This document shows positions 1,864 through 61,816 of a stretch of DNA of 64,000 bases, one piece after another. This DNA comes from a virus, in IMG/VR virus record IMGVR_UViG_3300029286_000020, positions 1 through 64,000 of that record; one strand, given 5' to 3'. The translations under genes were made by a program, and so were the position numbers. Positions within the stretch are counted from its first letter, which is position 1; the number at the start of each line of letters is the position of its first letter. Under the pieces are notes generated by a model. It was not told the origin of the DNA, made no database searches, and saw only the letters and a list, made by a program, of their open reading frames with translations.

Positions 1864-1877
1864 GGACCATATGGCCC
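1864..1877 (+). repeat. dispersed 14-bp quasi-palindrome, copy 1 (GGACCATATGGCCC)
   Basis: Read directly; abuts the stop codon at 1878. Confidence 0.9.
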
Positions 1878-2063
1878 CTAGCGGTCATCCGACAGGTAGT
1901 CGGCCTTCGCACAGTCAACCGAGTCGACCGATTTTCTCAAGTCGAGGTAGATGACGGCGACCTTGGGAGGCGTCGAGTCAAACTCGTAGATGATGTCGAC
2001 GGGCGAAGTCGACGACACCTCAGGTTGGATGTACGAGGCCGAGAGGGTCGAGGAGGACTTCAT
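1878..2063 (-). CDS. small hypothetical protein (61 aa)
   Basis: ATG at 2063 overlaps the Nudix stop (ATGA), favouring this start over 2195. Confidence 0.45.
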   Translation of the reverse strand: MKSSSTLSASYIQPEVSSTSPVDIIYEFDSTPPKVAVIYLDLRKSVDSVDCAKADYLSDDR

Positions 2064-2764
2064 AGCCAACCCTTGTCGTTGCCCGATGCGAGGCGCTTCC
2101 GCTTGACCTTCTCGACAAGGTCCATCGCCTTCGTGAGGATCTTGATGTCGCGGCTGTTCCCGCCCTTGGCGAACTTGTGAATGGCTTCGGTCCACGTCGC
2201 GAGCAGAACCTTGTCGGTCTCCTCGTCGTGGCGCCCAAGGTCGCGGGTGGCCACCATGAGGTAGTAGTGCGTGTGCGACATCGAGCCTTCAGCGAGGCCG
2301 AGGTAGCCGCCCGGGATGATGCGCGCGACGATGCCGATCTCTTCTTCGACCTCGCGAAGCGCGGCTTGCTCCTGCGTTTCACCCTTGTCGATGCGGCCCT
2401 TGGCGAAGGCCCACGGTCCGAAGTTGCCAGATGGCTTTCGGATGTAGACGTGGTCGAGGTCGTCGACGCCTCCGAGGACAACGCCTCCTGCCGAGATCCA
2501 CTTCTCTGGCTTCTTGTACTCGGGCTTCTCAGGCTTCAGTCCAGAAGACCCGTCCGGTCCGACGCCCTTGGATGAGTCATCGCTCTTGGACGACTTGGAA
2601 CTGGACCAGCTCGACTTGGAGGACTTCTCTGCAGGGACGCCGAACCACGACTTCGCGGGCTTGTCGGACATCGGTTTGTCGCCGCCCGAAGCTTTGATGA
2701 CCTTGCCGTCGGGCCCGACCTTGAAGATCGCCTCCAGCTGTTCCAGATCTTCCTTGAAAGTCAT
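2060..2764 (-). CDS. Nudix hydrolase with low-complexity N-terminal extension
   Basis: Nudix box GRIDKGETQEQAALREVEEEIG; SAGGVV upstream; ATG at 2764 overlaps the previous stop (TGATG). Confidence 0.9.
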   Translation of the reverse strand: MTFKEDLEQLEAIFKVGPDGKVIKASGGDKPMSDKPAKSWFGVPAEKSSKSSWSSSKSSKSDDSSKGVGPDGSSGLKPEKPEYKKPEKWISAGGVVLGGVDDLDHVYIRKPSGNFGPWAFAKGRIDKGETQEQAALREVEEEIGIVARIIPGGYLGLAEGSMSHTHYYLMVATRDLGRHDEETDKVLLATWTEAIHKFAKGGNSRDIKILTKAMDLVEKVKRKRLASGNDKGWL

Positions 2765-3183
2765 CACCAAGCCTCGATTCTGAACGCCGCTCCTGCGCCG
2801 CGCACAGCAATACCAGCCTCGTAACGGTTCCGGTACGTGAATGACTCGCTCGCGAGGATCCGCCCATGCACGTTCGCTCCATCGAACGAGTATTCCAGAG
2901 CAGCTCCGCCGTCGTTGCAGATGCGGATGTTGCCCGACCAGAGCATCGGGTGAACGATTGGTGGGGCGGTGGTTCCGGTTCCAGTGGGGGTCAGCGGGTT
3001 CACCACAGGAGCGTTGCTCCCATAGGGGACGTTCGGTGCAGGGGTGAGGGGGTTTGCGCCCGCGCCGTCGAGGAACATGAAGGCGTTGGCGTCAAACGCA
3101 GCAGCTGCGACACCGCTGGTGAAGAAGCGGATCGAGCGGATGCCGCTGGGGACGCGAGGGGGCCAAGATGGGGGGAACGGCAT
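2764..3183 (-). CDS. beta-rich hypothetical protein, probably virion structural
   Basis: AGGAG SD; all-beta pattern IRICND...LEYSFDG...FRIEAW. Confidence 0.55.
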   Translation of the reverse strand: MPFPPSWPPRVPSGIRSIRFFTSGVAAAAFDANAFMFLDGAGANPLTPAPNVPYGSNAPVVNPLTPTGTGTTAPPIVHPMLWSGNIRICNDGGAALEYSFDGANVHGRILASESFTYRNRYEAGIAVRGAGAAFRIEAW

Positions 3184-3186
3184 GGG

Positions 3187-3390
3187 CTACTCCTGCGGAG
3201 ACTTCAAGACAACGCCGATGGCTTGGGCGAGAAGTTGAGCGACGTTCATACCACGTTCGGCAGCCTCTGCGTTCAGTGCAATGAAGGTGACCTCTGGAAT
3301 GGCGATGAACACCACGTTGCCGGTGGGATCCCCTCCAGTCAGAGGGTTCTCTTGAGGCTTCATGTAGCTGATGGCTCGGGGTGACGTCAT
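3187..3390 (-). CDS. small ribbon-helix-helix (CopG-like) DNA-binding protein
   Basis: VFIAIPEVTFIALNAEAAERGMNVAQLLAQAI follows the strand-helix-G-helix RHH pattern. Confidence 0.55.
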   Translation of the reverse strand: MTSPRAISYMKPQENPLTGGDPTGNVVFIAIPEVTFIALNAEAAERGMNVAQLLAQAIGVVLKSPQE

Positions 3391-3726
3391 TCAGCCCTCC
3401 TGCGCTTTGAGCATTTGGGCAGCTGTGAGCCGAGGAGGAGATCGGGAGGCCGGGCCCGGTTCAGTTTTCTTCTTGTGAGGAAGCACGGTGTACTTCCAGC
3501 GCGCGGCCAGACTGAGGATGTCGAAGTCCTCCGGGGTCAGCTCGCCACCGGGGATGCCGGTCTCCATGAACGCGGACCGGATGGCTGTGTCGGGGGATAC
3601 GTCAGGGTTCTTCTCAAAGAACGCTTCGGTCGCATCCCAGACCTGTCGCGCGGATTTCGTGCGCCACGGCCAGCTGGGGCCGGATGGCCCACCGAGGTCG
3701 CGCAGCATTTCAGGGAGGGTGCTCAT
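3391..3726 (-). CDS. hypothetical protein
   Basis: ATGA-coupled to 3723..4484. Confidence 0.55.
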   Translation of the reverse strand: MSTLPEMLRDLGGPSGPSWPWRTKSARQVWDATEAFFEKNPDVSPDTAIRSAFMETGIPGGELTPEDFDILSLAARWKYTVLPHKKKTEPGPASRSPPRLTAAQMLKAQEG

Positions 3727-4484
3727 CTTGCTGTTGGTGGCTTTCTGAAGAAGCTGTTGTAGCCGAAGAAGGAGGTGCCCGCGATGACCTTACCGCTCTC
3801 TGCAGCCGCCCTCATCGCGCTTGTGCGACCCGGGAACGACACGACCTGATTGAACTGCGGAATCTGCGAGAACGCGAGGCTCACGCTTGCCAGCCGAGGG
3901 TTGCCTGACGGGAAGAATTTCTCCCAAGTGATGTCGCAGGAGGTCATCACACAGAGGACAGAGTCTGCGTCCTGAGATGTGAAGTTGTTTTCGCCCCCGG
4001 CCAGACCGATACCGCTCTGGGGGAGGTTCAGCTTCAACTTTGCCGGAGGAATGGTTCGTTGCTTCACGGAGTCGTAGGTGGGCAGCATGTACTGCCGCAG
4101 CCACACAGCAGCGGAGCGGACGTCGATGTTGCGCTCTCCTTGACCAGAGCTTTTCAGGCGCTCCTTGGCTGCGTTCGCGGCAAAGGCCCCGACGTCAGTC
4201 ACCAGCAGCGCGAGGTCGATGTCAGATGAAAACTGAGCGGTGAACGAGATGGTCCGCTCACCGGATGCGACCCACTGGTAGACAGGGAGACTCCCGCCGG
4301 GAATCTCCTTGCTCTGCCAGTTGACCGCCTTGTTGTCGGAGATGCTCTCAGGGAAGTATTGGAACGCCTGCGCTGTGTCCGGCTCGTCGGTGTCCGGCTT
4401 CAACGAGATGAGCGTGGCCATGCTGCGCTTCTCAGAGAGCAGGCTGGGCCCGAGGGCCGTCGCAAGTCCGACCAGTCCAGCCAC
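3723..4484 (-). CDS. tail tube initiator / CIS-tube-like protein (Afp7/Pvc7 N-domain, T4 gp48/54-like)
   Basis: FQYFPESISDNKAVNWQSKEIPGGSLPVYQWVASGERTISF and C-terminal GNPRLASVSLAF motifs. Confidence 0.75.
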   Translation of the reverse strand: MAGLVGLATALGPSLLSEKRSMATLISLKPDTDEPDTAQAFQYFPESISDNKAVNWQSKEIPGGSLPVYQWVASGERTISFTAQFSSDIDLALLVTDVGAFAANAAKERLKSSGQGERNIDVRSAAVWLRQYMLPTYDSVKQRTIPPAKLKLNLPQSGIGLAGGENNFTSQDADSVLCVMTSCDITWEKFFPSGNPRLASVSLAFSQIPQFNQVVSFPGRTSAMRAAAESGKVIAGTSFFGYNSFFRKPPTAR

Positions 4485-4503
4485 GTCTCACCTCGTCTTT
4501 GGT

Positions 4504-5670: not shown

Positions 5671-5682
5671 GACAAAGCCACT

Positions 5683-6105
5683 CTATGGGAGATATTTTGG
5701 TTCTACCACCCCAGCATCCCACGAAACAGAGTCAAAACGAAAAGCGCCGACCACTCGACCCTCGAAGCTTGGGTCGCGCGTCAGCACTCCTCGGATGTCC
5801 CCGCTCATGTCTGCGTTCCGCAGCAGGACGTTCGAGACGACGCCGGAGGGCTGGAGCACGAGGATGGCGTAGGCACTGGGAGCAGCAGCTTTGCGCAAGT
5901 TGGCCTTGGCCAACAAGGCGCCAGACGGGGCCAGCAGCGCACACAGCGCAGGCCACGTGAGCGAGAGAGGATCAGCGTCCTTCTGCGGTACCAGCCAACC
6001 ATCTCGAATTTTGCAGGGCGTGAGCAGAAAACTGGCCACGGTCCTCCTCAGAGACTGAAAATCCGGGTCGAACCATATGGTCCGCCCGGAGTTCCGTCGG
6101 GACAC
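5683..6105 (-). CDS. hypothetical protein (start uncertain)
   Basis: Only minus-strand ORF filling this gap. Confidence 0.4.
   Translation of the reverse strand: MSRRNSGRTIWFDPDFQSLRRTVASFLLTPCKIRDGWLVPQKDADPLSLTWPALCALLAPSGALLAKANLRKAAAPSAYAILVLQPSGVVSNVLLRNADMSGDIRGVLTRDPSFEGRVVGAFRFDSVSWDAGVVEPKYLP
6070..6083 (-). repeat. 14-bp quasi-palindrome, copy 2 (GGACCATATGGTTC on minus)
   Basis: Read directly. Confidence 0.9.
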
Positions 6106-6119
6106 CTACCCGTCAGCGC

Positions 6120-12830: not shown

Positions 12831-12844
12831 GGTCCGTATGGTCC
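12831..12844 (-). repeat. 14-bp quasi-palindrome, copy 3 (GGACCATACGGACC on minus)
   Basis: Read directly; intergenic. Confidence 0.9.
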
Positions 12845-17623: not shown

Positions 17624-18007
17624 CTACGGGGCGGCGGTTGGAATGGCGACTGGGAAAGCGCCAGTAGTCCCTGTGGCGACCACTGTGTACTCGATCAGAA
17701 CGGTCACAAATGCTTCGTCGCGGGTGAATGAGATGTTGTCGAGCCGAGCCCGAGGCTCCCAGCGCGCAAGTGTCGAGGAGATTTCCGACCGGAGAATTTG
17801 CGTCAGAATGTCATCGTTGTTCTCGAAGACGTACTGCTGCATGTCGCACCCGAATTGAGGGCGCATCGGACGCTCGCCTCGCTGAGTCTGCAGGATCTGC
17901 TGCAGAGACATCCGGACGAGGTCGTCATCGAAGGTGGCAGCAGGAAGACTCTGGGAGCCCTTCTGGAAGGGGAAAGCCACTCCTCTGTAGAACGCCATCA
18001 GGGCCAT
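17624..18007 (-). CDS. baseplate sheath initiator (gp25/GPW family)
   Basis: ILQTQRGERPMRPQFGC...RWEPRA; AAGGAGG SD. Confidence 0.92.
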   Translation of the reverse strand: MALMAFYRGVAFPFQKGSQSLPAATFDDDLVRMSLQQILQTQRGERPMRPQFGCDMQQYVFENNDDILTQILRSEISSTLARWEPRARLDNISFTRDEAFVTVLIEYTVVATGTTGAFPVAIPTAAP

Positions 18008-18014
18008 ATGGTCC
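18001..18014 (-). repeat. 14-bp quasi-palindrome, copy 4 (GGACCATATGGCCC on minus), overlapping the gp25 start codon
   Basis: Read directly; lies between SD and ATG. Confidence 0.9.
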
Positions 18015-18052: not shown

Positions 18053-18538
18053 TCACACCACCGGCCCGATGATGGGCGGGCCAGATGGCTGTGGAAACGT
18101 GACGAGCGTGCTCAAGGTGGCAGTGTGGAGCGCAGTGGCAACGGCTGTCGCGTAGACCTCGGCGGGATTCGGCACGACCAAGAGAGCCGTCAGGATGGGC
18201 AGCATGGCGGGGGCGAGGACAGGGGGAGCTGCCACACCGGGGAGTGGGACGCCTGCGAAGATGGCGCCGGTCCAATAGAGGGTGATCATCGAGACGAAGC
18301 CTGCAGCGACCACCGGAGGAGCCCCGGGCAGCACCGCAAAAGCCGACCCGAGGGCCACGTCCATCGTGACCACACCGGGGCCCGGAGTCACCAGCGGGAA
18401 ACCAAGGGAAGAGGCGGCGGCAGCATACTCGCGGTAGGCCGACGCGACCCGACTGGCTGCGGTGAACGCATCCGGAGGCTTGTCCGTGGTCGACAGCTTG
18501 AGCAGGGCGTTGAAAAGAACCGAAGGGTCAAGAGGCAC
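18053..18538 (-). CDS. hypothetical baseplate-region protein
   Basis: Between spike and gp25; hydrophobic, Pro/Ala-rich. Confidence 0.6.
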   Translation of the reverse strand: MPLDPSVLFNALLKLSTTDKPPDAFTAASRVASAYREYAAAASSLGFPLVTPGPGVVTMDVALGSAFAVLPGAPPVVAAGFVSMITLYWTGAIFAGVPLPGVAAPPVLAPAMLPILTALLVVPNPAEVYATAVATALHTATLSTLVTFPQPSGPPIIGPVV

Positions 18539-24742: not shown

Positions 24743-25494
24743 CCGGGCTGACCCAAGTCCAGTTCGCTCTTGTATTCGTGGCTGCAGACAGGGCACTGCA
24801 TGTCCATCTCAGTGTCGACGCCGCCGTCGTGGCTCTCCATCATGGTCCGCAGACCCTGCCGGTCGCGAAACGACAAGCCCTTGATGTCGGTCATCGTAGG
24901 CGTCTTCCCGTCGAGAAGTTCGATGCGCGCAAGAAGCATGGCTGAGGGCTTCTCGTCGTCAGATACCTTGCTGGCACGTTCCTCGTCGGCACCAGTCCCG
25001 AGACGGTGGCGAACCTTCCGGCCCGATGGGAGCACGTCATCGAACACGCGGACCATCGGGTTGGTCATCTTCTGGACGGTGAGGTCGCTGAGATCGAGAA
25101 CGTAGTTCCCCCTGCTTTTGCACTCTGGGCACACCTCCTCGACTGGGAAGGCATCCCCCAGAGACGTGCGGCGAAGGGCCAGCAAGAGGAAGATGCGGTC
25201 GCCAGTCGGGAGGTGGGAGATGATGCTGGGAAAATGCCCCTTGTCCGTGATGGTGCCGATGCGTTCCAAACAGGCGGACAGCAGCATCCCGAGCTTCTTC
25301 TGCACCCCGAGCTTCGGAGTGGCGAGAAGGTCCTCTTCCCGCCCCGTCATCTCCCTCAGATGGACCTCAGTGTGAAGCACTCCAAGGTTGTCGAGGTAGC
25401 CGCACGGCAACTCGAAGACGCCGTTTGTCGGCTTCGGAGTGTCGAGCAGGTTCTGGTTGATGTTCTCTGAGAAAGTCGGTGCTTTGTCGCTCAC
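24688..25494 (-). CDS. tail assembly chaperone (T4 gp26-like, two CxxC motifs)
   Basis: FELPCG, REMTGREED, CPEC and CPVC, ends near GFFFP; upstream of tape measure. Confidence 0.8.
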   Translation of the reverse strand: MSDKAPTFSENINQNLLDTPKPTNGVFELPCGYLDNLGVLHTEVHLREMTGREEDLLATPKLGVQKKLGMLLSACLERIGTITDKGHFPSIISHLPTGDRIFLLLALRRTSLGDAFPVEEVCPECKSRGNYVLDLSDLTVQKMTNPMVRVFDDVLPSGRKVRHRLGTGADEERASKVSDDEKPSAMLLARIELLDGKTPTMTDIKGLSFRDRQGLRTMMESHDGGVDTEMDMQCPVCSHEYKSELDLGQPGFFFPGRVQKDSKTKSST

Positions 25495-26096
25495 GTCTTG
25501 TTCCTTCCGGCTGCGTCCACCAGCGGTGAGGCTTCCGCCTCGTACATGCAGAAAAGGGCTTTGAGAGCCGTCGTCACGGTCATCCCTTGCCCGTCCACGA
25601 TCGTTTTGAAAGTCGAGTACAGGTCCGAATCCACCCAGATGTTGAGCCGGACATCAGACCCTGCGTCCTGATACGACGAGAGGTCGTCGAAGCGTGCTTG
25701 GTCGGCGACGTAGCGGCCCATCATGTAGCGCACCAAAGCGCCCATGCTGCTCGTGTGGCCGACGTCCCGTCGCTCCTGCAGCTTCTTGTAGAGCCGGTCG
25801 GAGACCCAGATGTTGACGAGACGCTTGCCTTGCTCCGCGACCTTCTTCGGGGAGACGCTGGAGGCCAGCTCGCATGCCCGGCAGAGGAGCACGGAGTTCG
25901 CGAGGAGCAGTTTTCCGCCCGCCTCCTCCGGAACGATGAGTCGGGGTTTGAGCTTGTGCTCCCCTCCGCAGTTCGCACATTTTCCGTGTGCAGCGTCGTA
26001 GACCATCTGCGACCACATCCGGCGGTCGTCGGGTTCTGCTGGGTCCGTCAAGATCGCACCTGTTGGGACCATATGGCCCGCGTCCATGTTGAGCAT
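25491..26096 (-). CDS. degenerate HNH-type Zn finger fused to two ribbon-helix-helix-like domains; putative regulator
   Basis: CANCG...IVP..GG..NSVLLCRAC lacking the usual His residues; repeated (L/V)NIWV-helix-helix units. Confidence 0.65.
   Translation of the reverse strand: MLNMDAGHMVPTGAILTDPAEPDDRRMWSQMVYDAAHGKCANCGGEHKLKPRLIVPEEAGGKLLLANSVLLCRACELASSVSPKKVAEQGKRLVNIWVSDRLYKKLQERRDVGHTSSMGALVRYMMGRYVADQARFDDLSSYQDAGSDVRLNIWVDSDLYSTFKTIVDGQGMTVTTALKALFCMYEAEASPLVDAAGRNKT
26066..26079 (+). repeat. 14-bp quasi-palindrome, copy 5 (GGACCATATGGCCC), in the first codons of the HNH*-RHH gene
   Basis: Read directly. Confidence 0.9.
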
Positions 26097-26128: not shown

Positions 26129-26152
26129 AAAAAAAGCCCACGCGAAGTGGGC
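26129..26152 (-). terminator. intrinsic terminator
   Basis: GCCCAC-TTCGC-GTGGGC followed by T7 on minus. Confidence 0.8.
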
Positions 26153-26723: not shown

Positions 26724-27455
26724 CTATGCGGCCATCGCAATTTCCTCCACAGCTTCTGGCTGGATGTCCATCTCCTGAATCGAGACCTGCCCAGAGGTCG
26801 CATCAAAGTCTGAGCCGGTCTTGTACCTCAAGGGGATGCAGTTCTTGAGGAGGAAGGCGCGTGCGGGGATTTTGATGCTGGTTGCCTGCGAAGTAGGCGC
26901 GTTGGGAGCGAAGTTGGCCGCGAGGGTTGCCGCACCTAGAGACCCAAGTTGAGCTGCGGACGTGGTCGCCGCTCCCACTCCGGTGCCCAAGCCTGCACCC
27001 GCTCCCACGGAGAACCCGGTCACAGTCGACAGGCCAGTTGTGAGACCTGCAGCCATCGCTACCTGTTGAGCGGTGTTCTGAGCTGGGGTGTTTCGGAAGA
27101 AGTGAACCAGAAGCAGGGTTCGGCGGTAGGTGATGCCACCGATCTGAAGACCAGTCAGCCCGGTTGTTCCCGCAAGCGCGGCCATCGTCCACTTCCAAAA
27201 GTCCGAGTTGAACCACGTCACGCCCCGAGACAGCGTGATCGACCCGACGCTCGCGCCCTTCACCACGGTCTTCGTGAAGGGCCAGTTTCCTTCGTTGATC
27301 TGCTGAGTCTCGACAGTGATCTCCGGGGAAGACACCGCAGAGAACCCCGAGAGCGGGGTGAACAATGGCAGCGCAGGCGCGAAGTCGATGGGGGCGACGT
27401 CGTAGAGCCAGAAGTTGTTGTCGCGCAGTGGGTCAAGCAGGTTGGAGCGCGCCAT
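26724..27455 (-). CDS. second tail tube-like protein (gp19 family) with Gly/Ala-rich insertion
   Basis: DPLRDNNF, GFSAVS, ITLSRGV, FWKW, FDATSGQVSIQEM. Confidence 0.85.
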   Translation of the reverse strand: MARSNLLDPLRDNNFWLYDVAPIDFAPALPLFTPLSGFSAVSSPEITVETQQINEGNWPFTKTVVKGASVGSITLSRGVTWFNSDFWKWTMAALAGTTGLTGLQIGGITYRRTLLLVHFFRNTPAQNTAQQVAMAAGLTTGLSTVTGFSVGAGAGLGTGVGAATTSAAQLGSLGAATLAANFAPNAPTSQATSIKIPARAFLLKNCIPLRYKTGSDFDATSGQVSIQEMDIQPEAVEEIAMAA

Positions 27456-28832: not shown

Positions 28833-28862
28833 CACCAACGGGACCATATGGACCCGTTGGTG
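28833..28862 (-). terminator. hairpin/terminator after the sheath gene, centred on palindrome copy 6 (28841..28854 GGACCATATGGACC)
   Basis: CACCAACGGG...CCCGTTGGTG 10-bp inverted repeat followed by TTTCTCT on minus. Confidence 0.7.
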
Positions 28863-35394: not shown

Positions 35395-35408
35395 GGACCA
35401 TATGGACC
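35395..35408 (+). repeat. 14-bp quasi-palindrome, copy 7 (GGACCATATGGACC)
   Basis: Read directly; between gp13-like stop and gp14-like SD. Confidence 0.9.
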
Positions 35409-43528: not shown

Positions 43529-45325
43529 TCAGCGCGCGCCTCGGGCGTTGAGATCTCGGAGCAGACCGCCAATTTCACGCAAGCGCAACTCCAAGCCTCG
43601 ATCGGACTTCAGGATGGTGTCGAGCTTGGCGTCCATGCGTTTTGTGTCCTTCGGGTTGTAGCCCTCGGTCAACTCTCGGTCGGAGAAGCCGCTGTGCGTT
43701 GGGATCCCGCGACGACGGGCTGCGTCACGCGAGCTTGAGAGAGCCTTCACCACCCGGTTCGGCTGGCGAGCCTCTGCTGGGGGACCATACGGGCCCTCTT
43801 CGGGGGGCGCTTCGCCCGGAGGAGCTTCCATCGGTGGAGGCGGGGGCATGATGATGTTCTGTGCAGCGGCTTGATTTTCAGCGTCCTCGGCAGACTCCCC
43901 ACTGCGCTGCTTCTTGATGGTGACGATCTCGTCTTCAGACAAACCGAAGACGTTCGAGAGAATCCACTGCAGCGAGACGAAGTCCCGCATGCGTGCCGCG
44001 AGGTCCGCTTTGGCCGTGCGAACTTCCATCTGAGCCAGCTCGAAAATGGCCGACGGCACCGTCATGTTGATGTCGTAGTCGACAGCGTAGGGGTCGAGGC
44101 CCAGCGCTGACAGATGGACGCGGGCGACCTTCCGGAGCCCGTTCTTCAGCTCCCGCTGGATGCGGAGGACGGTACGAGCAAAGCGGACATCCTCGCTGGA
44201 CAGAACCGCCCGGGCCACACCGGATTCCTGCCCAAGGTACGCCTTCGGCACCTTGATGGCTGAAAACAGCTTGTCGCGGAAGTATTCGATGTCGTCCATC
44301 GCCTGCCACTGCGGGGCACCGAGAGTCTCGATGCGAGTGGAGTCCACGCCCTTCCGGGTAGGAACGAAGAAGTCCTCGTCCTGCGACAGCGCGTCGAACT
44401 TCAGGTTCAGTTTTCCAGTGCCCGGGTCAACAAACCGCTTCTTCCGGAAGTTCTGGCGGACACGATTCACGAAGGCGAGGGCTTCCTGCGGGGGCAGATC
44501 GCCGACATCGACGTAGAACGCAAAGCGCTCCGGGGCCCGCTGGAGGCGGTACACGAGGGCTGCGTCCTCCAGCAGCATGAGCCGCTTCCAGATCCAACGA
44601 GCAGCCTCCAAGGCGCTGTGGCCGTAGACCGAACGGCGCTCCTTCCCGCGCAAGCGAAAGTGGACCACCTCCCAGCTCTCAAACGCCGCCACCGGCTGAT
44701 TCATCGGGTCCGAGCTTGTTGCCAAGTCGAACTTCGCAGACAGGGTTCGCTGGAAGTCGTTGTTGGTGAAGTCGAAGCGCCCCTTGAAGTCCTGCATGAA
44801 GCCGATCAGGTCACCCTTCGGGGTTTCAAGGCGGCGGACCGTCGGAGGAGGCAGATAGTTGATGCCTCTGACGCCGTCAGCGTTGACCAGAAGCTCCTCG
44901 TAGTCGTTCCCGTACTTGCACAAGGTTCGTGCAATTTCCCAGATCTCTTCGTCCATGCGAAGCGTTCGATTGAACAAGTCATCGAGGTTGCTTTGCAGAG
45001 TCTTGTCTGGAGAGGTGATCCAGATGGTTCGGTGGAGAACGGAGTCTGGCTGAGTCGCGTCGTCCGCGAGGATGTCGAGGGCAGTGGCGATCTCCCCGTA
45101 GTCGTCCATCTCCTCGTAGTCAGCGAACCGGAGGAGGAGGTCCGTGTCAAGGCGCAGGTAGTCCGTGAGGGCGTCGTAACCCACACCCGACATCAGGTCG
45201 ATGGCTGTGGCGTCGCCACCGCCCAATTCGCCCGTCGCACCCTTGGCAAGCTGGATGTTCGCTTGGTCCTTGTCGCGGCTGAACGCAGCTGAAATTCGCT
45301 TGGCGACGTCGTCCGCGAATCCCAT
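43529..45325 (-). CDS. portal protein (T4 gp20-like)
   Basis: YEEMDDYGEIATALDI, YGHSALE, LLEDAALVYRLQRAPERFAFYVDVGDLP, EDFFVP, IETL.G, KVPKAYL. Confidence 0.96.
   Translation of the reverse strand: MGFADDVAKRISAAFSRDKDQANIQLAKGATGELGGGDATAIDLMSGVGYDALTDYLRLDTDLLLRFADYEEMDDYGEIATALDILADDATQPDSVLHRTIWITSPDKTLQSNLDDLFNRTLRMDEEIWEIARTLCKYGNDYEELLVNADGVRGINYLPPPTVRRLETPKGDLIGFMQDFKGRFDFTNNDFQRTLSAKFDLATSSDPMNQPVAAFESWEVVHFRLRGKERRSVYGHSALEAARWIWKRLMLLEDAALVYRLQRAPERFAFYVDVGDLPPQEALAFVNRVRQNFRKKRFVDPGTGKLNLKFDALSQDEDFFVPTRKGVDSTRIETLGAPQWQAMDDIEYFRDKLFSAIKVPKAYLGQESGVARAVLSSEDVRFARTVLRIQRELKNGLRKVARVHLSALGLDPYAVDYDINMTVPSAIFELAQMEVRTAKADLAARMRDFVSLQWILSNVFGLSEDEIVTIKKQRSGESAEDAENQAAAQNIIMPPPPPMEAPPGEAPPEEGPYGPPAEARQPNRVVKALSSSRDAARRRGIPTHSGFSDRELTEGYNPKDTKRMDAKLDTILKSDRGLELRLREIGGLLRDLNARGAR
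43782..43795 (+). repeat. 14-bp quasi-palindrome, copy 8 (GGACCATACGGGCC), inside portal
   Basis: Read directly; encodes GPYGP. Confidence 0.88.
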
Positions 45326-47738: not shown

Positions 47739-48497
47739 TCAGTCCTTCGACGTGTCGTTCATGTCGATGAGGTCACCGGAAGGATCATTGGACAGTTCGT
47801 CCATCTCCCCCGCGAATTCAGGGTTGCGATCGGACCGCTCCGCGATGGAAAGCAGCCGCTCGGCGATGGCGAGCACTTTGCGTCGAGACTCAGAACTGTC
47901 GAGCACCTTGACCACTCCGGGGTTGTCGGCGTAGCGGGTTGCGACGTCAGCCATGAGAGTCGCAGCGACACTCACAGTCCCAAGTTTTCGGTCGTTGATG
48001 CCGAGGTCCATCTTCAGTTGGGCCGCAGAGGCAAGGATCTCACGAGCGGTTCGGATTTCCTGTGTCATCGACGGCAGCAGCTTCTTGATGTTCTGCTCGG
48101 TCTTGAAGTCGATGGCGACCCGGTCCATCTGGATCTTGTAGAGACGGTGCATCTCCTCCAGTTCGTTGAGCCCGGCCTTCACCTCTGCAACCGACTTCTC
48201 AAACACGACGTTCAGAGGCCCCGCGCGCTGGGTCGCCGGGATGGACATCCGGTACTCCGTGAGGAGGTTGACCAGCGAAGCCGGGGTCATGTTGGTCATC
48301 TCGTTGCGTTCGTCCTGCACCCACGCAGCCACAATCCGTCCCGAAACACCCTCTTCCACCAGCTTCTTGTGCAGTTCCTTGAAGCACTTGAGGTTCCGCA
48401 ACGACGCGAAGTTCGTCGATCGGCTCACGGGGCGGATTCGACCGCCCTTCTTCGGCAGAGCGCTCTTCGGCGCCGCGTCCTTCTTGGGTTCGCTCAT
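47739..48497 (-). CDS. probable terminase small subunit
   Basis: Helical protein directly upstream of TerL; called on position. Confidence 0.5.
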   Translation of the reverse strand: MSEPKKDAAPKSALPKKGGRIRPVSRSTNFASLRNLKCFKELHKKLVEEGVSGRIVAAWVQDERNEMTNMTPASLVNLLTEYRMSIPATQRAGPLNVVFEKSVAEVKAGLNELEEMHRLYKIQMDRVAIDFKTEQNIKKLLPSMTQEIRTAREILASAAQLKMDLGINDRKLGTVSVAATLMADVATRYADNPGVVKVLDSSESRRKVLAIAERLLSIAERSDRNPEFAGEMDELSNDPSGDLIDMNDTSKD

Positions 48498-48547: not shown

Positions 48548-50386
48548 TCATTTGCTTCCCCAACTTTGGCCCCCGCCGACTTCCGCGCGCGTCGGGACGG
48601 ACGGAAGCATTGGAGCGATGCCTTCGATCATGCCGTCGTGCAGCTCCTGCCGAACGTGAATTTCCAGTTCAGGATCCTCGTCGTGTTCGCAGACGATCTC
48701 GTCGTGGACCATATGGACCGGCGCGCACTTCGCCCCCTTACCGAGAAGGGGCGTTCGCCCTGCAAGCTTCTTCATACGGTCGTAGACGTTGCGGATGGCA
48801 ACCTTGAGGCCGTCGGCCCCAGTGCCTTGGATGGGGCTGTTGTAGAACTCGTTGTGTGCCTTCTCATCCTTGATGATGCGTCGACGACCCCAAGCCGTCC
48901 GGGTCTCGCGCTGACGCTTGCCTGAGTCCATCGCCAACCGATGCCACGAGTCGATCCCCGCGTATGCCTCGAAGAAGCGTCGGCGGAACGTGCGGGCTTG
49001 GTTCTCCGTGAACGACACCCCGTAGCCCTGCTTCGCGTACATCACAAGGCGAGCGGCCTGCATCCCGTAGATGAAGCCGAAGTTGACCGGCTTGGCTTGC
49101 TGGCGTTCGGCCTTCACGATCTCCGACTCAGGCTTGCCGGTCACGAGGGACGCCGTCGCGTAGTGAGCATCGCGGTCGTCTCGGAACACCTTGATGAGCA
49201 CCGGATCCTTGGAGATCTCGGCAACAATCCGCATCTCGATGTTGCTCCAATCGCAGATGGCCAAGGTTCTACCGGGCTCGGCCCTGAAGCAGTCTCGAAA
49301 GGCACCCCCACGAGGTACTTGCTGGAGGTTCGGTCCTCGATTCGCGTAGCGCCCCGTGTCTGTGAAAGGGAAGTACGACGAGTGGATGCGACCCGACGTC
49401 GGGTGGATATTCTTCAGGTACTCCTCGCCGAACGCCTTCACCGACTGCGCATAACCTCGGTACTCGATGAACTCTTTGAGGATTGGCCAGCGGTCAGCCT
49501 CCATAGCCAGCGTCATCTCCTTCGTGTCCATCAAAGGGACTGTCTTCGTCAGCCCGGTCTCCGGGTCTTTCCACTTCTGCTTCACTCCCAGCATGTGGAA
49601 GGACCGAAGGATCTGGTCGGTAGAGTCGAGGTTGAAGCTGGCAGGACCGAAGAGGCCCAACTGGTTCGATGGGTTCGGGAGCTTGGAAAGCAAGCTTGCC
49701 CGCAGCCGCTCCAGCTGAACCCGGTCCGATGCTGTCCGCGTGAGCCACATATCTTTGTTGAGGAAGAACCCGTTCAGCTCCATGCACGCTTCGGGGAGAA
49801 CCGCATTGAACTCCAGCTGTGCAATCTTCACCAGCCGCGCATCGACGATCTTTTTCTTGAGGACGTCGCGGAGCCGGGGAAGCTTGTCGATGTCGTCTGC
49901 GGCGTAGTCAAGCTGTCGCTGTGTCAGCGTCCCGTCCCAATCGGAACCGCCGAGGTCTTCGACGGTCGCGGCTTCGCCCAGCTCGCGCTTGTAGAGGCTC
50001 CACAGGTCGTGCTTCAGCCCGGGGAGGCCCGCGTAGATGATGCTCGACGCGCGCAGGGTGTCGAACAGCTTCCCGATCTCCAGATCGAAGTGCCAGAGCA
50101 GCCACTTCTGGTCGAACTTCATGTTCTGACCGACCGTGACGCCCTTGGTCCGCCTGAAGGCATCCAAAACGGGGCCGAGCGTCTTCGTCTTGTAGAGGTC
50201 AATAAGGTAGAGACCCTGTCCGGTGTTGACCGAGAACAGGCGTGGACGCCCTGTCAGGGGGTCGAAGCTACCCCCACCGCCGATCTTTGCGGTTTCCAGA
50301 TCGAGCCCGATGACATCGGCACTCTCAATTTCACGAGCAATAGCGGCGAGCAAATGCTCATCAGTGACGACGGTGTACGGGCGCAA
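48548..50386 (-). CDS. polA: family A DNA polymerase (3'-5' exonuclease + polymerase, no 5'-3' exonuclease)
   Basis: ExoI DLE, ExoII NMKFD, ExoIII YAADD; motifs A DWSNIEMR, B RQQAKPVNFGFIYG, C HDE; TTG start with GGAG SD. Confidence 0.96.
   Translation of the reverse strand: MRPYTVVTDEHLLAAIAREIESADVIGLDLETAKIGGGGSFDPLTGRPRLFSVNTGQGLYLIDLYKTKTLGPVLDAFRRTKGVTVGQNMKFDQKWLLWHFDLEIGKLFDTLRASSIIYAGLPGLKHDLWSLYKRELGEAATVEDLGGSDWDGTLTQRQLDYAADDIDKLPRLRDVLKKKIVDARLVKIAQLEFNAVLPEACMELNGFFLNKDMWLTRTASDRVQLERLRASLLSKLPNPSNQLGLFGPASFNLDSTDQILRSFHMLGVKQKWKDPETGLTKTVPLMDTKEMTLAMEADRWPILKEFIEYRGYAQSVKAFGEEYLKNIHPTSGRIHSSYFPFTDTGRYANRGPNLQQVPRGGAFRDCFRAEPGRTLAICDWSNIEMRIVAEISKDPVLIKVFRDDRDAHYATASLVTGKPESEIVKAERQQAKPVNFGFIYGMQAARLVMYAKQGYGVSFTENQARTFRRRFFEAYAGIDSWHRLAMDSGKRQRETRTAWGRRRIIKDEKAHNEFYNSPIQGTGADGLKVAIRNVYDRMKKLAGRTPLLGKGAKCAPVHMVHDEIVCEHDEDPELEIHVRQELHDGMIEGIAPMLPSVPTRAEVGGGQSWGSK
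48706..48719 (+). repeat. 14-bp quasi-palindrome, copy 9 (GGACCATATGGACC), inside polymerase motif C
   Basis: Read directly; encodes VHMV of PVHMVHDE. Confidence 0.88.
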
Positions 50387-56763: not shown

Positions 56764-56777
56764 GAACCGTATGGTCC
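56764..56777 (-). repeat. 14-bp quasi-palindrome, copy 10 (GGACCATACGGTTC on minus)
   Basis: Read directly; abuts the stop codon at 56778. Confidence 0.9.
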
Positions 56778-57545
56778 TCAGGCCAGCTCAAAGCCACCAA
56801 TCTCAGGGTCCTCTTCAACCGCAAGCGCGATCTCGATGCCCTTCGACTTGGCCTCGTACTTCTCCTTCGCACGGGCGCGGGCGATCAGCTCGACGGCGCG
56901 ACGGTTGATGCCTTGCGTCCTGCCGAACAGTGGGTTGGCCGAGTCGCGAGCGTCGAAGCAGGCGTCGATGAGCGCCTTCTTCTCGGAGTCGGTCAGCTCA
57001 CCATTCTCCAACCCAATCTTCTTCGCCGCATCGCGAAGGAGCTTCTGAGCGCGAGCCGACTTGTTCAGGAAGTCCTTCACCGATGGCCCAAGGCCCTTGG
57101 CCGTGAAGGCGATGCCATCAGCGATGTCCTTGTCGGTCATCGTCTTGATGTCGACGCTGCTCGACTTCTTCCCGACGGAGGGCGTCACCTTGTAGAGATC
57201 CCACGCCAGCGCGAGGCTGTAGAACGCTTGACGGGCCTCGGCGAAGGGCCCGTAGATGCCGTCGACAGCGTGCTTCATCTTCAGGCAGGCGGATTCGGTG
57301 TCCATCGCGGCCCGCTTCGCGGCAATGCCGCCGTCCGCGATGGCTGCCTCTTCGGCAAACTTGGCCACCTTCGCCGCAGCCTCCTCCAAGTCGTCCCCGG
57401 ACTTCACAGCTTCGCGGAAGCCATTCGCCGCCTTGAGAGCGTCCCCCGGGATGTCCGTGCTGGCTCCAGCGTCCTTGACTCCCTTGGACTTCGCAGCCTC
57501 AAGGATGGAGCGGGTCTGATCGGCGAGGCGCTTGAGGTCGGACAT
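56778..57545 (-). CDS. helical hypothetical protein with ILE-A leader
   Basis: AGGAG SD before ATG at 57545 (MSDLKRLADQTRSILEAAK). Confidence 0.65.
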   Translation of the reverse strand: MSDLKRLADQTRSILEAAKSKGVKDAGASTDIPGDALKAANGFREAVKSGDDLEEAAAKVAKFAEEAAIADGGIAAKRAAMDTESACLKMKHAVDGIYGPFAEARQAFYSLALAWDLYKVTPSVGKKSSSVDIKTMTDKDIADGIAFTAKGLGPSVKDFLNKSARAQKLLRDAAKKIGLENGELTDSEKKALIDACFDARDSANPLFGRTQGINRRAVELIARARAKEKYEAKSKGIEIALAVEEDPEIGGFELA

Positions 57546-57601
57546 CGAAACTCCTGATGAGAGGTCGGGACGGGAGACCGTACCCCAACGCAGAAGTCCT
57601 C

Positions 57602-58411
57602 TCAAGAATCAAGGACCGCTTTGGCCGTATCTTTGGACTTGTCGAGCGCCTTCAGAGCCTGCTTCCCTGCCTCTTCAATGAGGGGCGCCAAGAAGTCGTT
57701 GACGTCTTCGTTGGCGTGCTTGCAGTAGGCAAGAACCTTGTCGAGGGCCTTCTTGGTGTTGCGATTCATTTGCACATAGATGTGCTCTTGCTTGCCGAAC
57801 GAAAACACCATGAAAGAGAGGTTCACCGTGTCGCCGTGCTTGGCGAAGAGGTGCTGAAGGATGTTGGAGAGGTCTTCGACTGTCTTGGCTTCCTTGGCTT
57901 TGTCGTCGAACTCGTCCTGTAGCTCTTTCGGGAGCGACTTCTTCAGCCCGCGCTTCACATCGCCGACGATCTTCTGGAAGCCCTTTGTGTCAGCGTAGCC
58001 CATCAGCTGTTGGAGAGCGTCGGCGCCGTACTTCGTCGCCATTTCTCCGTAGAGCTTGGCGAACTTCTCTGGATCCAGTTTTCCCTTCAACACGTTCAAT
58101 CGAACGGTGACGAACTTCTGAAGATCCTCGTCTTGCCACTTCGAGTCTGAAAGGACCGCACAAGGCAGTTCGTCGAGCCCAATGATCTTGGCTGCCTGCC
58201 AGCGATGCTCGCCACCGATGATGCGATAGGTGCCGTCGTCCATCGGCACCACTTCGAGGGGATCTAGGAAGCCCACGTCGCGGATCTCGTCGACGAGACG
58301 CTGAAAGGTGATCTCGTCTTGACCCTGTGGGTTCCACGAGTTCGGGTGAATGAGGTCGATGGGGATGTGACGAAGTTCGATGCGACCGGGTTTGACGTCA
58401 GGATTGCTCAA
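57602..58411 (-). CDS. ParB/Sulfiredoxin N-domain protein with possible C-terminal RHH-like domain
   Basis: IPIDLIHPNSWNP, GFLDPLEV, IIGGEHRWQAA. Confidence 0.88.
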   Translation of the reverse strand: MSNPDVKPGRIELRHIPIDLIHPNSWNPQGQDEITFQRLVDEIRDVGFLDPLEVVPMDDGTYRIIGGEHRWQAAKIIGLDELPCAVLSDSKWQDEDLQKFVTVRLNVLKGKLDPEKFAKLYGEMATKYGADALQQLMGYADTKGFQKIVGDVKRGLKKSLPKELQDEFDDKAKEAKTVEDLSNILQHLFAKHGDTVNLSFMVFSFGKQEHIYVQMNRNTKKALDKVLAYCKHANEDVNDFLAPLIEEAGKQALKALDKSKDTAKAVLDS

Positions 58412-58420
58412 GGGGGCGTC

Positions 58421-58642: not shown

Positions 58643-59700
58643 TTGGACTCCGGTTCGTCGGTTTGTGACTTGGCAGCTTTGGCAGCGGCAGCAAGGGCAC
58701 CGAGGCCATACACCACCTCGTCGTCGTCGTCGACCACCACCAAGCGGAGGCCCACCGACTTCTCGATCTTGGAGAGGAAGCGGAGACGCTGCTCGATGGA
58801 CGCACCACTCCAGTCCGCCCCCGAGAGAAAGTCGAGGCAGATGAGCGAGATGAGCGTGGAAGGCGCTTTGGTGTCGCGACCAACCAGATCCTGTGCGCGC
58901 TTGAGGGCAAGGTTCACCGTCTCAGCCTGCTCAGACTCCAACTGGAAGACCTTGCTGACCCACTTCCGGTCCACGAACGCTTCGCTGGCGGTGTCCGCGT
59001 AGTCGCCGGTCGGGCGAGCTTTCGGTGCTGGAGGTACCGAGTGCGGAATAAGTATTGCTTTACTGGGCTCTGCGCCCGGTATCTCAGGTGAGTTCTCGGT
59101 TGGAAGCATCCCCTCAGGAATCTCGTTGGAGGCCAAGACGGGGTCTGGCTGACGTGCGATGTCGGCTTGAATCTGGCGGGCCTGTTCCATCGCGACGGTG
59201 CGCTTGATGATCTCGACCAGTGTCGTGTAGTTCACCGTCTCTGCGCGGTCGATCCACTCGACCATGTTCGCCTTCGTGAGAACGCGGACCAGCTCTCGGG
59301 CCTTGGACCAACCCAAGCGGATGAATCGCTTCTTCAGTTCCGGGTTCTGTCCGAGTCCGTCCAGTTCCACTTCGACGCGGTAGAAAATGCGTACCAGACG
59401 CTGCGCCTTCTTGTAGTGAAGGGACAGCTCCTTCTCGGCAAATTCACCGATGTTGTTGTAGCCCCACTTTGCCAGCACGGAGCCGTTCTTTGGATCGCCG
59501 TCCACCGGGGCGTCGTAGATGCGGTAGAGAATCTCGCCGAGTTCGAGGTAGCCCGTCTCGACTTGCTCTGCGAGCACCCGGGCCCGGTGTCTGATGCGAC
59601 CTGCCCACGACTTCGATCCCACGTCGACGTCGACTCGGTAGTTCTTGGGCTCCTCTTCAGGGTTCGGGATCAACGTCAGAGCGGCGGTTGGGTTCGTCAA
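58639..59700 (-). CDS. putative DNA-binding protein (HTH-like N-part, RHH-like C-part)
   Basis: GGAGGA SD before TTG at 59700; GYNNIGEFAEKEL..AQRL..LGWSKARE. Confidence 0.5.
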   Translation of the reverse strand: MTNPTAALTLIPNPEEEPKNYRVDVDVGSKSWAGRIRHRARVLAEQVETGYLELGEILYRIYDAPVDGDPKNGSVLAKWGYNNIGEFAEKELSLHYKKAQRLVRIFYRVEVELDGLGQNPELKKRFIRLGWSKARELVRVLTKANMVEWIDRAETVNYTTLVEIIKRTVAMEQARQIQADIARQPDPVLASNEIPEGMLPTENSPEIPGAEPSKAILIPHSVPPAPKARPTGDYADTASEAFVDRKWVSKVFQLESEQAETVNLALKRAQDLVGRDTKAPSTLISLICLDFLSGADWSGASIEQRLRFLSKIEKSVGLRLVVVDDDDEVVYGLGALAAAAKAAKSQTDEPESN

Positions 59701-60028
59701 AGATTCCTCCACGGATTGGCTGCGGCGGGCCAAAGAAAGACAGCTCCCATGCCCGTATCTCAGTCGCTCGTCCAACGGGAGAGTCGCGGTTCATCAGCTC
59801 GCCTTCGACGAGGACGTAACAGCCTTTCTCCAGTTTTCCGCGACACGCCTCAACGAGCCCGTCGATGTAGACGTTGATTTTGACGCAGACCGTCAAGCTT
59901 CCTCGGTTCGTGGGACGCTCGGACTCGATGAAGAACGTGCAGGCGTCCGCGCCTTGGACGTGGGTTTTGGAGAAGGTGATGCGATCAGTGACGTGTCCAG
60001 CAATGAAGACTCGGTTGAGGCCGCGCAT
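59657..60028 (-). CDS. ssb: single-stranded DNA-binding protein
   Basis: LNRVFIAGHV...LEKGCYVLVEGEL OB-fold pattern; acidic tail. Confidence 0.8.
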   Translation of the reverse strand: MRGLNRVFIAGHVTDRITFSKTHVQGADACTFFIESERPTNRGSLTVCVKINVYIDGLVEACRGKLEKGCYVLVEGELMNRDSPVGRATEIRAWELSFFGPPQPIRGGIFDEPNRRSDVDPEP

Positions 60029-60636
60029 TCAACCATCCTTCGCAGAAGCAAGACCTCCGCACTATCGCGGCAAGCGACTACAGCCGCAAGTGCGTCATAA
60101 GGGTGCTCAATCTGGCTGGCTGGGATACCAGATTTCGTCATCAAGCCGGTGGGCCCCACGAGGTCGGCACGGAAAAGAAGGTTCAGCGATGCCTGTACCT
60201 CCTCTTTGGATGCGGACTTATTCTGGCACATGGTCTTCTTGATCTCTTGCGGGGACGCCTGCGTCACAGGGATCCTCTTGAGCGCCGAGAAGGCCGCAAT
60301 CACCCCCCAGCACATCGCCATCTTCGCCGCGACGGAGGAGCTTCGGGGGAAGGACATCGTCTCCGCGCAGATGATTTTGATGTCGTAGGACGACACCACA
60401 GAGTTCAGCCACGAGGCGATCTCTTTGGCACGCTCCAGATTGTCGTCGGAGGCTCGGACCTTCCGCTTTGCAGTCGCCTTTGAGGTGCGACACACAGTCA
60501 TCTTCACCGGACGGTCGTCCTGTGGATTTGGTCCGACGGCGTAGACGCAGAGGCCGATCGACGCGAAGCCCGGGTCGATGCCCAGCACGTAGAGAGGCCG
60601 GAAAGAACCAAGCGGGGCGAGAGGAGACTCGTTCAT
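59893..60636 (-). CDS. ruvC: RuvC-like Holliday junction resolvase
   Basis: VLGIDPG, ICAE, ASKEEV, HPYDALA. Confidence 0.88.
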   Translation of the reverse strand: MNESPLAPLGSFRPLYVLGIDPGFASIGLCVYAVGPNPQDDRPVKMTVCRTSKATAKRKVRASDDNLERAKEIASWLNSVVSSYDIKIICAETMSFPRSSSVAAKMAMCWGVIAAFSALKRIPVTQASPQEIKKTMCQNKSASKEEVQASLNLLFRADLVGPTGLMTKSGIPASQIEHPYDALAAVVACRDSAEVLLLRRMVECAASTESSLLDTSLIASPSPKPTSKARTPARSSSSPSVPRTEEA

Positions 60637-60980
60637 CGTCGACTCGGTGGGATGCGAGCGGCGGTTCGCTCTGTGAGAATGACTACGCCAAGGACGTCGT
60701 CAGCGTCTTTGGACGAAAGGCGCCCATCGGTGAAAACAAAGCGTCTGTCTGAGTTTCGTTCAATTGAAGCGATGGTGGACGGTACGAGAGGGCTTTGAGA
60801 TTTCCCCCATGCGCTCTCGTAGAGAACGCACGCGCCGCAGATGAACAGCGGCGACTGTCGACCAACAGTGATGCCCCACCGGGCTTGTGGCTTGTCGCAC
60901 TTGGCGCAGTGGGCGCCCCACAGCTTCTGCGGAAGAGGGTTGACAAGGCTCAGAGATGCAAGTGGGTCGTCGCGCATCAC
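60633..60980 (-). CDS. hypothetical Zn-finger protein
   Basis: CAKC...CGAC; coupled to both neighbours. Confidence 0.5.
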   Translation of the reverse strand: MMRDDPLASLSLVNPLPQKLWGAHCAKCDKPQARWGITVGRQSPLFICGACVLYESAWGKSQSPLVPSTIASIERNSDRRFVFTDGRLSSKDADDVLGVVILTERTAARIPPSRR

Positions 60981-61816
60981 GGGCTACCGAAGCAGGCTTT
61001 GGAAACCGGGCACGCCTTAGCGCGAGCGCAGGAGTCGTTGCCGCAGATGCGGTCGGGCAGGGTCTTCGATTCCATACCGGACCATACGGACCTGATGAGG
61101 TTGCGGACAAGGTCGATGGTGTCCTCGTCGCGGTCGATGTGATGCTCCACGAGGCTGCCAAGCCCGCTCTCGGCCTTCTGCCAGTAGAGGATCTTCCCCC
61201 ACTTGAACCCGGTGAACATCATGTAGATGTGGGTCTGCACCATGTGCGCGATCTGTGGCACCTGCTTGATCTCCCGTCCGCCGCGCTCCCCGATGCTTTT
61301 GATCTCAAGGATGCCCATGCCTTGGAGGCCGGGAAGCACAAGGAACCCGTCGCTGTGCCCCGTCAGTCGCAGCGCGTGGTCGACGAACTTGTGCTCGATG
61401 AATCGGAACGCTGCGCTTTCGCACTTCAGGCACACCTTCGGCATTGGCCGGGACCAGTCCTCCGGGCGTGTACCGTCGATGTATTCGCCGTATCGCTTCA
61501 AGCACCCCAAGCACTCCCACGTCCCGTAGAGCACGCCCGACTGGCCAAGCAGCTCGTTCTGAACAGCCCAATGGAGGGCGGTTCCGTGCAAGAAGGTCAG
61601 GTTGAGGCCGACGTCGACGGTGTCCCTCCGAACGATCTTGTTGAGAGTGCAGAGCACCTCTTCACGAGCGCAGAGCGATGGAATTCCAGACGCACGGAGG
61701 TAGCTGGCGACGGGATCGAGCGGTTGTTTCGGCTCATCCCGAACAAAAGTCTCAGAGATGATTCGGAGAAGCGACCCATGGCCGGTCTCTCCCCGCAGTA
61801 CGTTGGCAAGGCTCAT
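60977..61816 (-). CDS. Cas4-like PD-(D/E)XK exonuclease with Fe-S-type cysteines
   Basis: RAS..LCAR, GTALH, GHSDG, ILEIKS, QTHIYM, C..C..CP..C; probable start ATG at 61816. Confidence 0.85.
   Translation of the reverse strand: MSLANVLRGETGHGSLLRIISETFVRDEPKQPLDPVASYLRASGIPSLCAREEVLCTLNKIVRRDTVDVGLNLTFLHGTALHWAVQNELLGQSGVLYGTWECLGCLKRYGEYIDGTRPEDWSRPMPKVCLKCESAAFRFIEHKFVDHALRLTGHSDGFLVLPGLQGMGILEIKSIGERGGREIKQVPQIAHMVQTHIYMMFTGFKWGKILYWQKAESGLGSLVEHHIDRDEDTIDLVRNLIRSVWSGMESKTLPDRICGNDSCARAKACPVSKACFGSP
61079..61092 (+). repeat. 14-bp quasi-palindrome, copy 11 (GGACCATACGGACC), inside the Cas4-like gene
   Basis: Read directly; encodes SVWS. Confidence 0.88.

Follow-up and report, generated by a model that had tools for sequence, protein, structure and literature searches.

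An exact, asymmetric DNA word dispersed over the genome of an uncultured, apparently T4-like phage lineage and its possible role as an array of docking sites

Why does an uncultured phage carry the same short word, letter for letter, every few kilobases along its genome, and what might read it? The question is raised by the window analysed here, the first 64 kb (positions 1 to 64,000) of the 91,548-bp IMG/VR record IMGVR_UViG_3300029286_000020 (G000 in the following), in which the word GGACCATAYGG occurs 11 times where 0.03 copies are expected, an enrichment of ~500-fold. A preliminary description of this DNA had located 11 copies by eye, seven on the + strand and four on the − strand, and had put the chance expectation below 0.1; all of its coordinates and strands proved correct, and our scan of the window found no copy that had been missed. 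The whole record holds 15 copies, 11 on + and 4 on −, those beyond the window starting at 78146, 83041, 89332 and 90574, and a composite circle of ~154 kb holds ~25 exact copies, about one per 6 kb. Comparison with related contigs indicates that GGACCATAYGG is a private, highly specific recognition site on duplex DNA that is kept at ~25 places. As to what reads it, we tentatively favour an array of docking sites for one sequence-specific phage protein, an answer to which we give somewhat less than an even chance.

Near-copies of the word are no more frequent than chance allows. Counted independently, two one-mismatch copies, at 68905 and 72935, occur in the record where a third-order Markov model predicts 1.8, and since both are orthologous to perfect sites in the related contig G016 we regard them as relics. 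This chance-level count, together with the 11 copies against 0.03 expected, excludes chance or base composition as the origin of the array. Allowing up to one mismatch in the 14-mer pattern adds the opposite strands of known sites and nothing else, and GGA precedes 15 of the record's 18 CCATAYGG octamers. In a logo built from 43 roughly independent positions of eight genomes, ten bases never vary and position 9 is Y; weaker preferences follow (T > A > G > C at position 12, C in 74% at position 13 and C in 91% at position 14), and the flanks outside these 14 bp hold zero information. From this profile, the site is an asymmetric 11-mer whose weak 3′ extension (t-C-C) gives it the look of a 14-bp quasi-palindrome; in the extended form, GGACCATAYGGtCC, the layout is that of a 14-bp dyad with one strict and one degenerate half. 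Since conservation ends at 14 bp, a mobile mini-element can be excluded. No copy in the window is a perfect palindrome, as the preliminary description had also found, and there is one such palindrome among roughly 45 independent positions (G016 at 18133). Literature queries for the word returned primer matches only, and a general query gave nothing relevant.

The composite circle (~153.6 kb, 25 sites) was obtained by joining G000 with overlapping related contigs and is closed by overlaps with G011 (110 kb), G012 (62 kb) and G013 (52 kb), of which G013 adds 17.7 kb on the left and G012 adds 25.8 kb on the right. The 91.5-kb record thus represents ~59% of the genome, and its CheckV completeness is 54%. 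Among the relatives the word is enriched in two sub-lineages whose contigs share 65–98% nucleotide identity: clade A, comprising G000, G002, G003, G005, G011–G014 and G016, and clade B, comprising G001, G004, G018 and G020. A scan of IMG/VR with the 14-mer returned mostly chance matches, and G016, G018 and G020 were found thereby. Exact copies number 18 in G011, 10 in G012, 8 in G016, 7 each in G001 and G013, 6 in G002 and 5 in G020. Clades A and B are ~70% identical at the nucleotide level and have at least three positions in common, namely behind the sheath gene, in the portal tail and in the gene for the family-A DNA polymerase (PolA). A third sub-lineage (L214, L018 and L252), as distant as the two clades are from each other, has 0 copies in 44 kb and no replacement word, and the word is absent from all of the more distant relatives (capsid identity ≤75%). 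The hexamer CATATG is scarce outside the motif: 8 of its 11 copies in G000 lie inside motif sites, G001, G002, G006–G008 and G010 have 0–2 copies where 3–8 are expected, and G009 has 6 versus ~17. Clade B and G002 use almost exclusively the ATAC centre, which removes CATATG. This scarcity may stem from the pressure of an NdeI-like host restriction enzyme.

The copies favour the ends of genes. Eleven of the 15 sites in the record fall in the 7.3% of the sequence called non-coding (P = 3e-10), and most follow the stop codon of the preceding gene within 0–13 nt, at a remove from the ribosome-binding site of the next. In the window, GGACCATATGGCCC at 1864..1877 (+) is intergenic, immediately behind the stop of the upstream gene (1878..2063, −), and is kept in G011 and G013, while GGACCATATGGTTC at 6070..6083 (−), likewise intergenic, is kept in G013 and lost in G011. 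GGACCATACGGACC at 12831..12844 (−) lies between genes, 6 nt past a stop codon, and GGACCATACGGTTC at 56764..56777 (−) lies immediately past one; the latter is kept in G011 and occupies the same place in G016 in opposite orientation. Behind the sheath gene, GGACCATATGGACC at 28841..28854 (+) forms the apex of a longer imperfect hairpin; this intergenic site is present in G005, flipped in G001 and G004, and differs by one mismatch in G002. A second copy of GGACCATATGGACC, at 35395..35408 (+), sits in a 30-bp intergenic spacer 3 nt past a stop and is kept in G005, G003 and G002. Through the ATG inside the word two sites overlap a start codon; GGACCATATGGCCC at 18001..18014 (−) does so with the ATG of a gp25-like baseplate gene (17624..18007). 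Four sites lie deep in genes: GGACCATACGGGCC at 43782..43795 (+) in the variable C-terminal tail of the portal protein (GPYGP; same place in G001), GGACCATATGGACC at 48706..48719 (+) in PolA at a conserved VHMVH peptide (present in G016 and G020), GGACCATACGGACC at 61079..61092 (+) in a Cas4-like exonuclease gene (RSVWS, with a GTA codon for Val; also in G016), and one in a 269-aa open reading frame (ORF) outside the window. A further copy of GGACCATATGGCCC, at 26066..26079 (+), covers codons 6–11, i.e., part of the disordered N-terminal tail, of a gene for a protein with a dead HNH fold and tandem ribbon-helix-helix (RHH) units, and is kept in G013, G005, G003 and G002. The earlier placements in the portal (GPYGP), polymerase (VHMV) and Cas4-like (SVWS) genes, in three different reading frames, were accurate.

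The relatives indicate that selection acts on the duplex DNA and not via protein or RNA. At the polymerase site, G002, G006, G009 and G010 encode VHMVH or IHMVH by other codons and without the site. In the Cas4-like gene 15 nt, including the GTA codon, are identical in G002, G011 and G012 against a background of 75% identity, and motif-less relatives encode S-[IL]-W by different codons. In the HNH-RHH gene of G002 the word survives a His-to-Arg replacement at its single degenerate base. Conservation at synonymous positions in related phages, which the preliminary description had put forward as a check, was found, and sites are kept far above aligned background 11-mers (6 of 8 versus 0.31 in G011, 4 of 5 versus ~0.12 in G016 and 3 of 7 versus ~0.06 in G002). 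The use of three reading frames and the synonymous changes exclude a protein-coded repeat, and codon choice in the relatives agrees with the earlier view that protein sequence does not cause the copies. Since the copies are maintained by selection, the word must have a sequence-specific factor that reads it.

Sites are also lost, regained and turned around. In G011, within an alignment of 88% identity, two changes have abolished the site at 6070, and a new copy stands 150 bp away, on the other strand and inside the neighbouring gene. In-place flips occur at the sheath junction (G001 and G004), at 56764 (G016) and in a hairpin loop at 90574 (G012), and a 17-kb gap in G000 contains two relics and spans the ~65.0 kb position, which is occupied in G011 and G016. 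The moved site and the in-place flips show that position and orientation are locally free, and this turnover is in keeping with a role that calls for a site somewhere nearby but not at a fixed location. At 90574 two convergent genes are separated by a terminator hairpin that carries the motif in its loop (G000 90560–90600, G012 26780–26820); in G012 this loop has turned around with respect to the stems, with flanks ~95% identical to those of G000, an apparent stem-mediated loop flip.

The preliminary description had called the copies evenly spaced and orientation-independent, and both statements hold in part. Compared with uniform placement, the coefficient of variation (CV) of the spacing is 0.31 in the window (P = 0.0003), 0.56 in the record (P = 0.02; the 17-kb gap included) and 0.62 for the 25 sites of the composite circle (P = 0.007), and it reaches 0.73 in G011 and 1.0 in G002, neither of them significant. 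Over-dispersion is thus only moderate, and to call the copies evenly spaced overstates it, since the window is the most regular stretch and the CV rises to ~0.6 genome-wide. As for orientation, single sites do flip, and relative to local genes the circle carries ~13 sense and ~12 antisense copies. However, in the region from 26 to 91.5 kb the copies keep to one strand, with 11 of 12 sites on + in G000 and 11 of 11 in G005 and G016 taken together. This run continues across the switch in gene direction at 82 kb; up to about that point of the record all ORF calls are on −, which also agrees with the earlier statement that every gene in the window lies on one strand. Unique positions in the same region split 16:4 by strand, the circle as a whole splits 17:8 or 18:8, and a two-domain polarity on the circle is weak (P ~0.07).

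Two proteins encoded in the window are candidate readers. One, at 25491..26096 (−), is a 201-aa protein for which Pfam, alignment, AlphaFold2 (AF2) and Foldseek together suggest a dead HNH fold combined with tandem RHH units. Its Pfam HNH matches are weak and its HNH-like zinc fold lacks the catalytic His, a position held by Leu or Met in 40 of 40 members of the family alignment. The AF2 model (predicted local distance difference test, pLDDT, 85) contains the beta-alpha-alpha unit twice, i.e., two RHH units in one chain (TraY-like), and Foldseek returned HNH domains and the F-plasmid relaxosome chain 9f11_G, which we take to be the tandem-RHH protein TraY. Directly upstream of this gene, within the tail-gene cluster, lies a strong intrinsic terminator (GCCCAC...GTGGGC followed by T7; 26136–26152, −), which makes separate transcription of the gene probable. 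The other candidate, at 57602..58411 (−), is a 269-aa ParB/Noc/KorB-like protein, assigned by Pfam, PHROG, alignment and AF2. It matches Pfam ParB_N, combines an N-terminal ParB/Srx domain (GGEHR) with a helical domain, corresponds to PHROG 26387 over its full length and aligns to Noc over residues 6–168; its AF2 model matches ParB, Noc and KorB over 190–235 columns, the helical domain being modelled with moderate confidence.

Both proteins have counterparts in relatives that are free of the motif. In such relatives a search for another private word, by k-mer enrichment, dyad scans and palindromes near the ParB-like and HNH-RHH genes, gave only a sigma-70-like promoter word in G009. This motif-less contig of 129 kb has 7–11 copies of the sigma-70-like CTTGACAATCC preceded by CCCCAATC, which are probably early promoters. 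A perfect 14-bp palindrome, GAGAGCATGCTCTC, occurs as a single copy in or next to the ParB-like gene of G009 (25749–25764) and of G010 (5964–5977), both motif-less, and could be a parS-like site.

According to the docking-site reading, each copy of the word would dock one sequence-specific phage protein, bound asymmetrically, and the array would act on the whole chromosome, through organisation, marking or roadblocking, rather than on single promoters. Structurally, the best-fitting reader would be the single-chain tandem-RHH protein with the dead HNH fold (25491–26096), followed by the ParB/Noc/KorB-like protein (57602–58411); the built-in asymmetry of a tandem-RHH chain with an extra domain could account for a core, CCATAYGG, that is a pseudo-dyad and is strictly flanked by GGA on one side only. 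A precedent exists in the L5-type repressor, a monomer with two DNA-binding domains that reads an asymmetric 13-mer at more than 20 sites (PMC9283540). A docking array would account for the tolerance of flips and for the palindrome in G016, and the models of the encoded proteins offer two plausible readers. Our inferences are the reading of the word by a protein and not by a nickase, the identity of that protein and the effect of its binding.

Several observations weigh against this reading. Orthologues of the HNH-RHH protein, 42–50% identical, occur in motif-less G006–G008, and one with 63% identity and the same beta-strand residues occurs in L214, from a lineage in which 23.5 kb contain no site; moreover, the site at the 5′ end of the HNH-RHH gene itself falls within a tail that is disordered and variable, and clade B does not have it. 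For the ParB-like protein, identity is 81% to the orthologue in L252, where 20.8 kb are free of the word, and 50–54% to those in motif-less G006 and G008–G010; it represents a widely conserved core gene in a family of at least 314 members. By these comparisons neither candidate tracks the motif across lineages, and the reader may be an accessory gene or one of the two candidates with altered specificity. The conservation of the word also appears sharper, in its all-or-none character, than is usual for operator sets and resembles that of nickase consensus sites (PMC3517423), and the one-strand runs over tens of kilobases, which docking does not explain, suggest a polar function. Among other genes, a 255-aa gene at 56778–57545 seemed motif-specific, but motif-less L252 has an orthologue with 53% identity and the gene was rejected as the determinant; a structure look-up of its product in the ESM Atlas was uninformative.

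By analogy, the copies might instead be the consensus for localized single-strand interruptions made in virion DNA by a phage nickase, as in T5, phiKMV-like and tf/LUZ24-like phages. We regard this as unlikely but a serious contender; of the earlier proposal, the DNA-level sites in place of ordinary promoters stand, and the nicking sites that it listed among the options are a live alternative to docking. In phage tf the statistics match those of the present word: there are 14 copies of a 9-mer, three one-substitution variants genome-wide, none of them nicked, and similar positions but a slightly different main site in relatives (PMC3517423). More generally, the nick sites of tf/LUZ24-like (TACTRTGMC), phiKMV-like and T5 phages are each a short, asymmetric, group-private word in ~14–25 exact copies, with one-mismatch variants almost absent and similar positions in relatives (PMC3517423). 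Here too, the core is strictly asymmetric and all-or-none, positions are conserved and only certain lineages carry the motif. Perfect palindromes are scarce as well, with one among roughly 45 positions against ~4 estimated from position frequencies. Avoidance of the palindrome as evidence of nicking is now suggestive at most, given that G016 has one at 18133 and that lineages with the ATAC centre only avoid CATATG generally. Nicking is opposed by strandedness, because every known nick system is one-stranded (PMC3517423) whereas the present word occurs on both strands at about 2:1 (~17:8 on the composite circle, 11:4 in the record), and because the palindrome at 18133 would place nicks on both strands 3 bp apart. 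Nor does an active nuclease track the motif: the HNH fold of the RHH protein lacks its catalytic His in 40 of 40 members, and an HNH_3/NUMOD4 endonuclease (88314–88925), considered as the nickase, is absent from motif-bearing G011 and G012. The latter gene encodes a free-standing homing-type endonuclease with HNH_3, NUMOD4 and helix-turn-helix domains (G000 88314–88925, equivalent to L167:10314–10925, −) and is precisely missing from the 97%-identical G012. The nick systems further differ in occurring in podoviruses and T5, with a different host group, rather than in a T4-like myovirus, and nicks are here a conjecture from sequence; the function of nick sites was still unknown in 2012 (PMC3517423).

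A polar signal for a DNA-translocating machine, comparable to Chi or KOPS and addressed to a phage recombination set, a host end-processing nuclease or the packaging motor, is improbable in our judgement, although it would suit an asymmetric word at about one copy per 6 kb, same-strand runs that are independent of transcription (11 of 12 in G000 and 11 of 11 in G005 and G016 between 26 and 91.5 kb), the irrelevance of exact position seen in the moved 6070 site, and the RecA-like, Cas4-like/RecB-like, RuvC-like and SNF2/ResIII proteins encoded by the phage. Chi and KOPS words are 5–8 nt long. The 11–14 nt found here exceed this, two-domain polarity is weak (P ~0.07), GC skew gives no replichore signal, and individual sites flip between close relatives. 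We assign a lower probability still to binding by a host factor (for example a nucleoid protein or a global regulator) or to a link with the specificity of a restriction-modification or methylation system in host or phage. The 5-4-5 dyad layout does resemble dimeric helix-turn-helix operators, patchy presence among equally related lineages could mirror different hosts, CATATG is scarce outside the motif in all relatives, and G011 encodes two DNA methyltransferases; but regulator sites are normally degenerate while ten positions are invariant here, and targets of restriction or methylation should be avoided or neutral and not enriched ~500-fold. Least probable of all, and in our view very improbable, is a promoter, terminator or other element at the transcript level; a modest remainder of the probability goes to none of these readings. 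Eleven of 15 copies are intergenic and those at 28841 and 90574 form the apex of terminator-like hairpins, but ~13 sense copies stand against ~12 antisense ones, relatives have truly antisense intergenic copies with the non-palindromic ATAC centre, and the same site flips between relatives. The word is missing from strong terminators such as that following the capsid gene, scans for promoters and terminators stay at the level of chance, the distance to start codons ranges from overlap to 186 nt in both orientations, and Rfam contains no matching family. A simple promoter or RNA element is refuted by orientation, variable distances, the scans and the Rfam result, which upholds the earlier judgement that these are not ordinary promoters. 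A different, sense-oriented intergenic word, CCTGTTAC, fits promoters better. It stands 20–60 nt upstream of replication-module genes (G000 65064, 67639, 77655 and 79202, −) and is likely a promoter element of the phage.

Two known classes of dispersed sites come close to the docking-site reading. The stoperators of Cluster A phages, bound by the L5 gp71-type repressor, are asymmetric 13-mers in more than 20 copies genome-wide, many in short intergenic spacers, and are read by a monomer with two DNA-binding domains (PMC9283540); the present word has an 11-bp core plus three weak positions and ~25 copies. The orientation of stoperators, however, follows transcription and is needed for function (PMC9283540), unlike here, and the stoperator reading therefore does not apply. 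No L5 gp71-type repressor or integrase was present among the ~100 proteins scanned with Pfam and PHROGs, many small ORFs having been left unscanned. ParB-family arrays, such as the OB sites of KorB on RK2, the Noc-binding sites (NBS) and parS, consist of a 13–16-bp dyad word dispersed over the replicon. A dispersed dyad word and a two-domain ParB/Noc/KorB-like protein are likewise found here, but only one half of the word is strict, relatives devoid of the word have the ParB-like gene just the same, and no ParA was seen. A broader proposal, which we consider speculative and rather unlikely, is that the word marks a genome-tiling, strand-specific DNA transaction new for T4-like phages, either nicks or covalent marks on both strands or a polar translocase signal; its reader would be an accessory factor present in two sub-lineages and missing from the third, and sites would be lost and regained such that no long stretch remains without one.

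The phage itself looks like a member of a T4-like, PolA-encoding myovirus lineage, of lytic appearance. The record has 60.9% G+C and encodes a T4-type virion module (gp23-like capsid, T4-type portal, prohead protease, sheath, gp19-like tube, and gp25- and gp6-like baseplate proteins) together with replication and repair genes for a family-A DNA polymerase and RecA-like, DnaB-like, DnaG-like, O-like initiator, RuvC-like and Cas4-like proteins; SNF2/ResIII proteins are also encoded by the phage genome. Among cultured phages there was no megablast match to the first 20 kb of the window, and the top capsid identity was 34%. The window contains no tRNA genes, and a thaumatin-like gene has its sole genome match, at 40% identity, in a cyanobacterial metagenome-assembled genome. 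A set of modification and nucleotide genes comprises a deoxynucleoside monophosphate kinase, MT-A70 and N6/N4 DNA methyltransferases, a SET-domain protein, MazG and a deoxycytidine monophosphate deaminase (G011 47925–48482, 65878–67955 and 68017–68559; G000 83048–83371 and 83771–84502), and the DNA of the phage may be modified.

Private, exact words recurring throughout a phage genome have been known since the nicks of T5, their purpose unexplained, and the present case adds a T4-like lineage to them. The comparative data are unusually clean, as they combine DNA-level selection, turnover, in-place flips and a natural motif-minus sister lineage, and it is this sister lineage that makes the identity of the reader testable. 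Should the sites turn out to be nicks on both strands, the phenomenon of localized nicks would be broadened. Should the reader be the tandem-RHH or the ParB-type protein, the array would offer insight into chromosome organisation or marking in large lytic phages.

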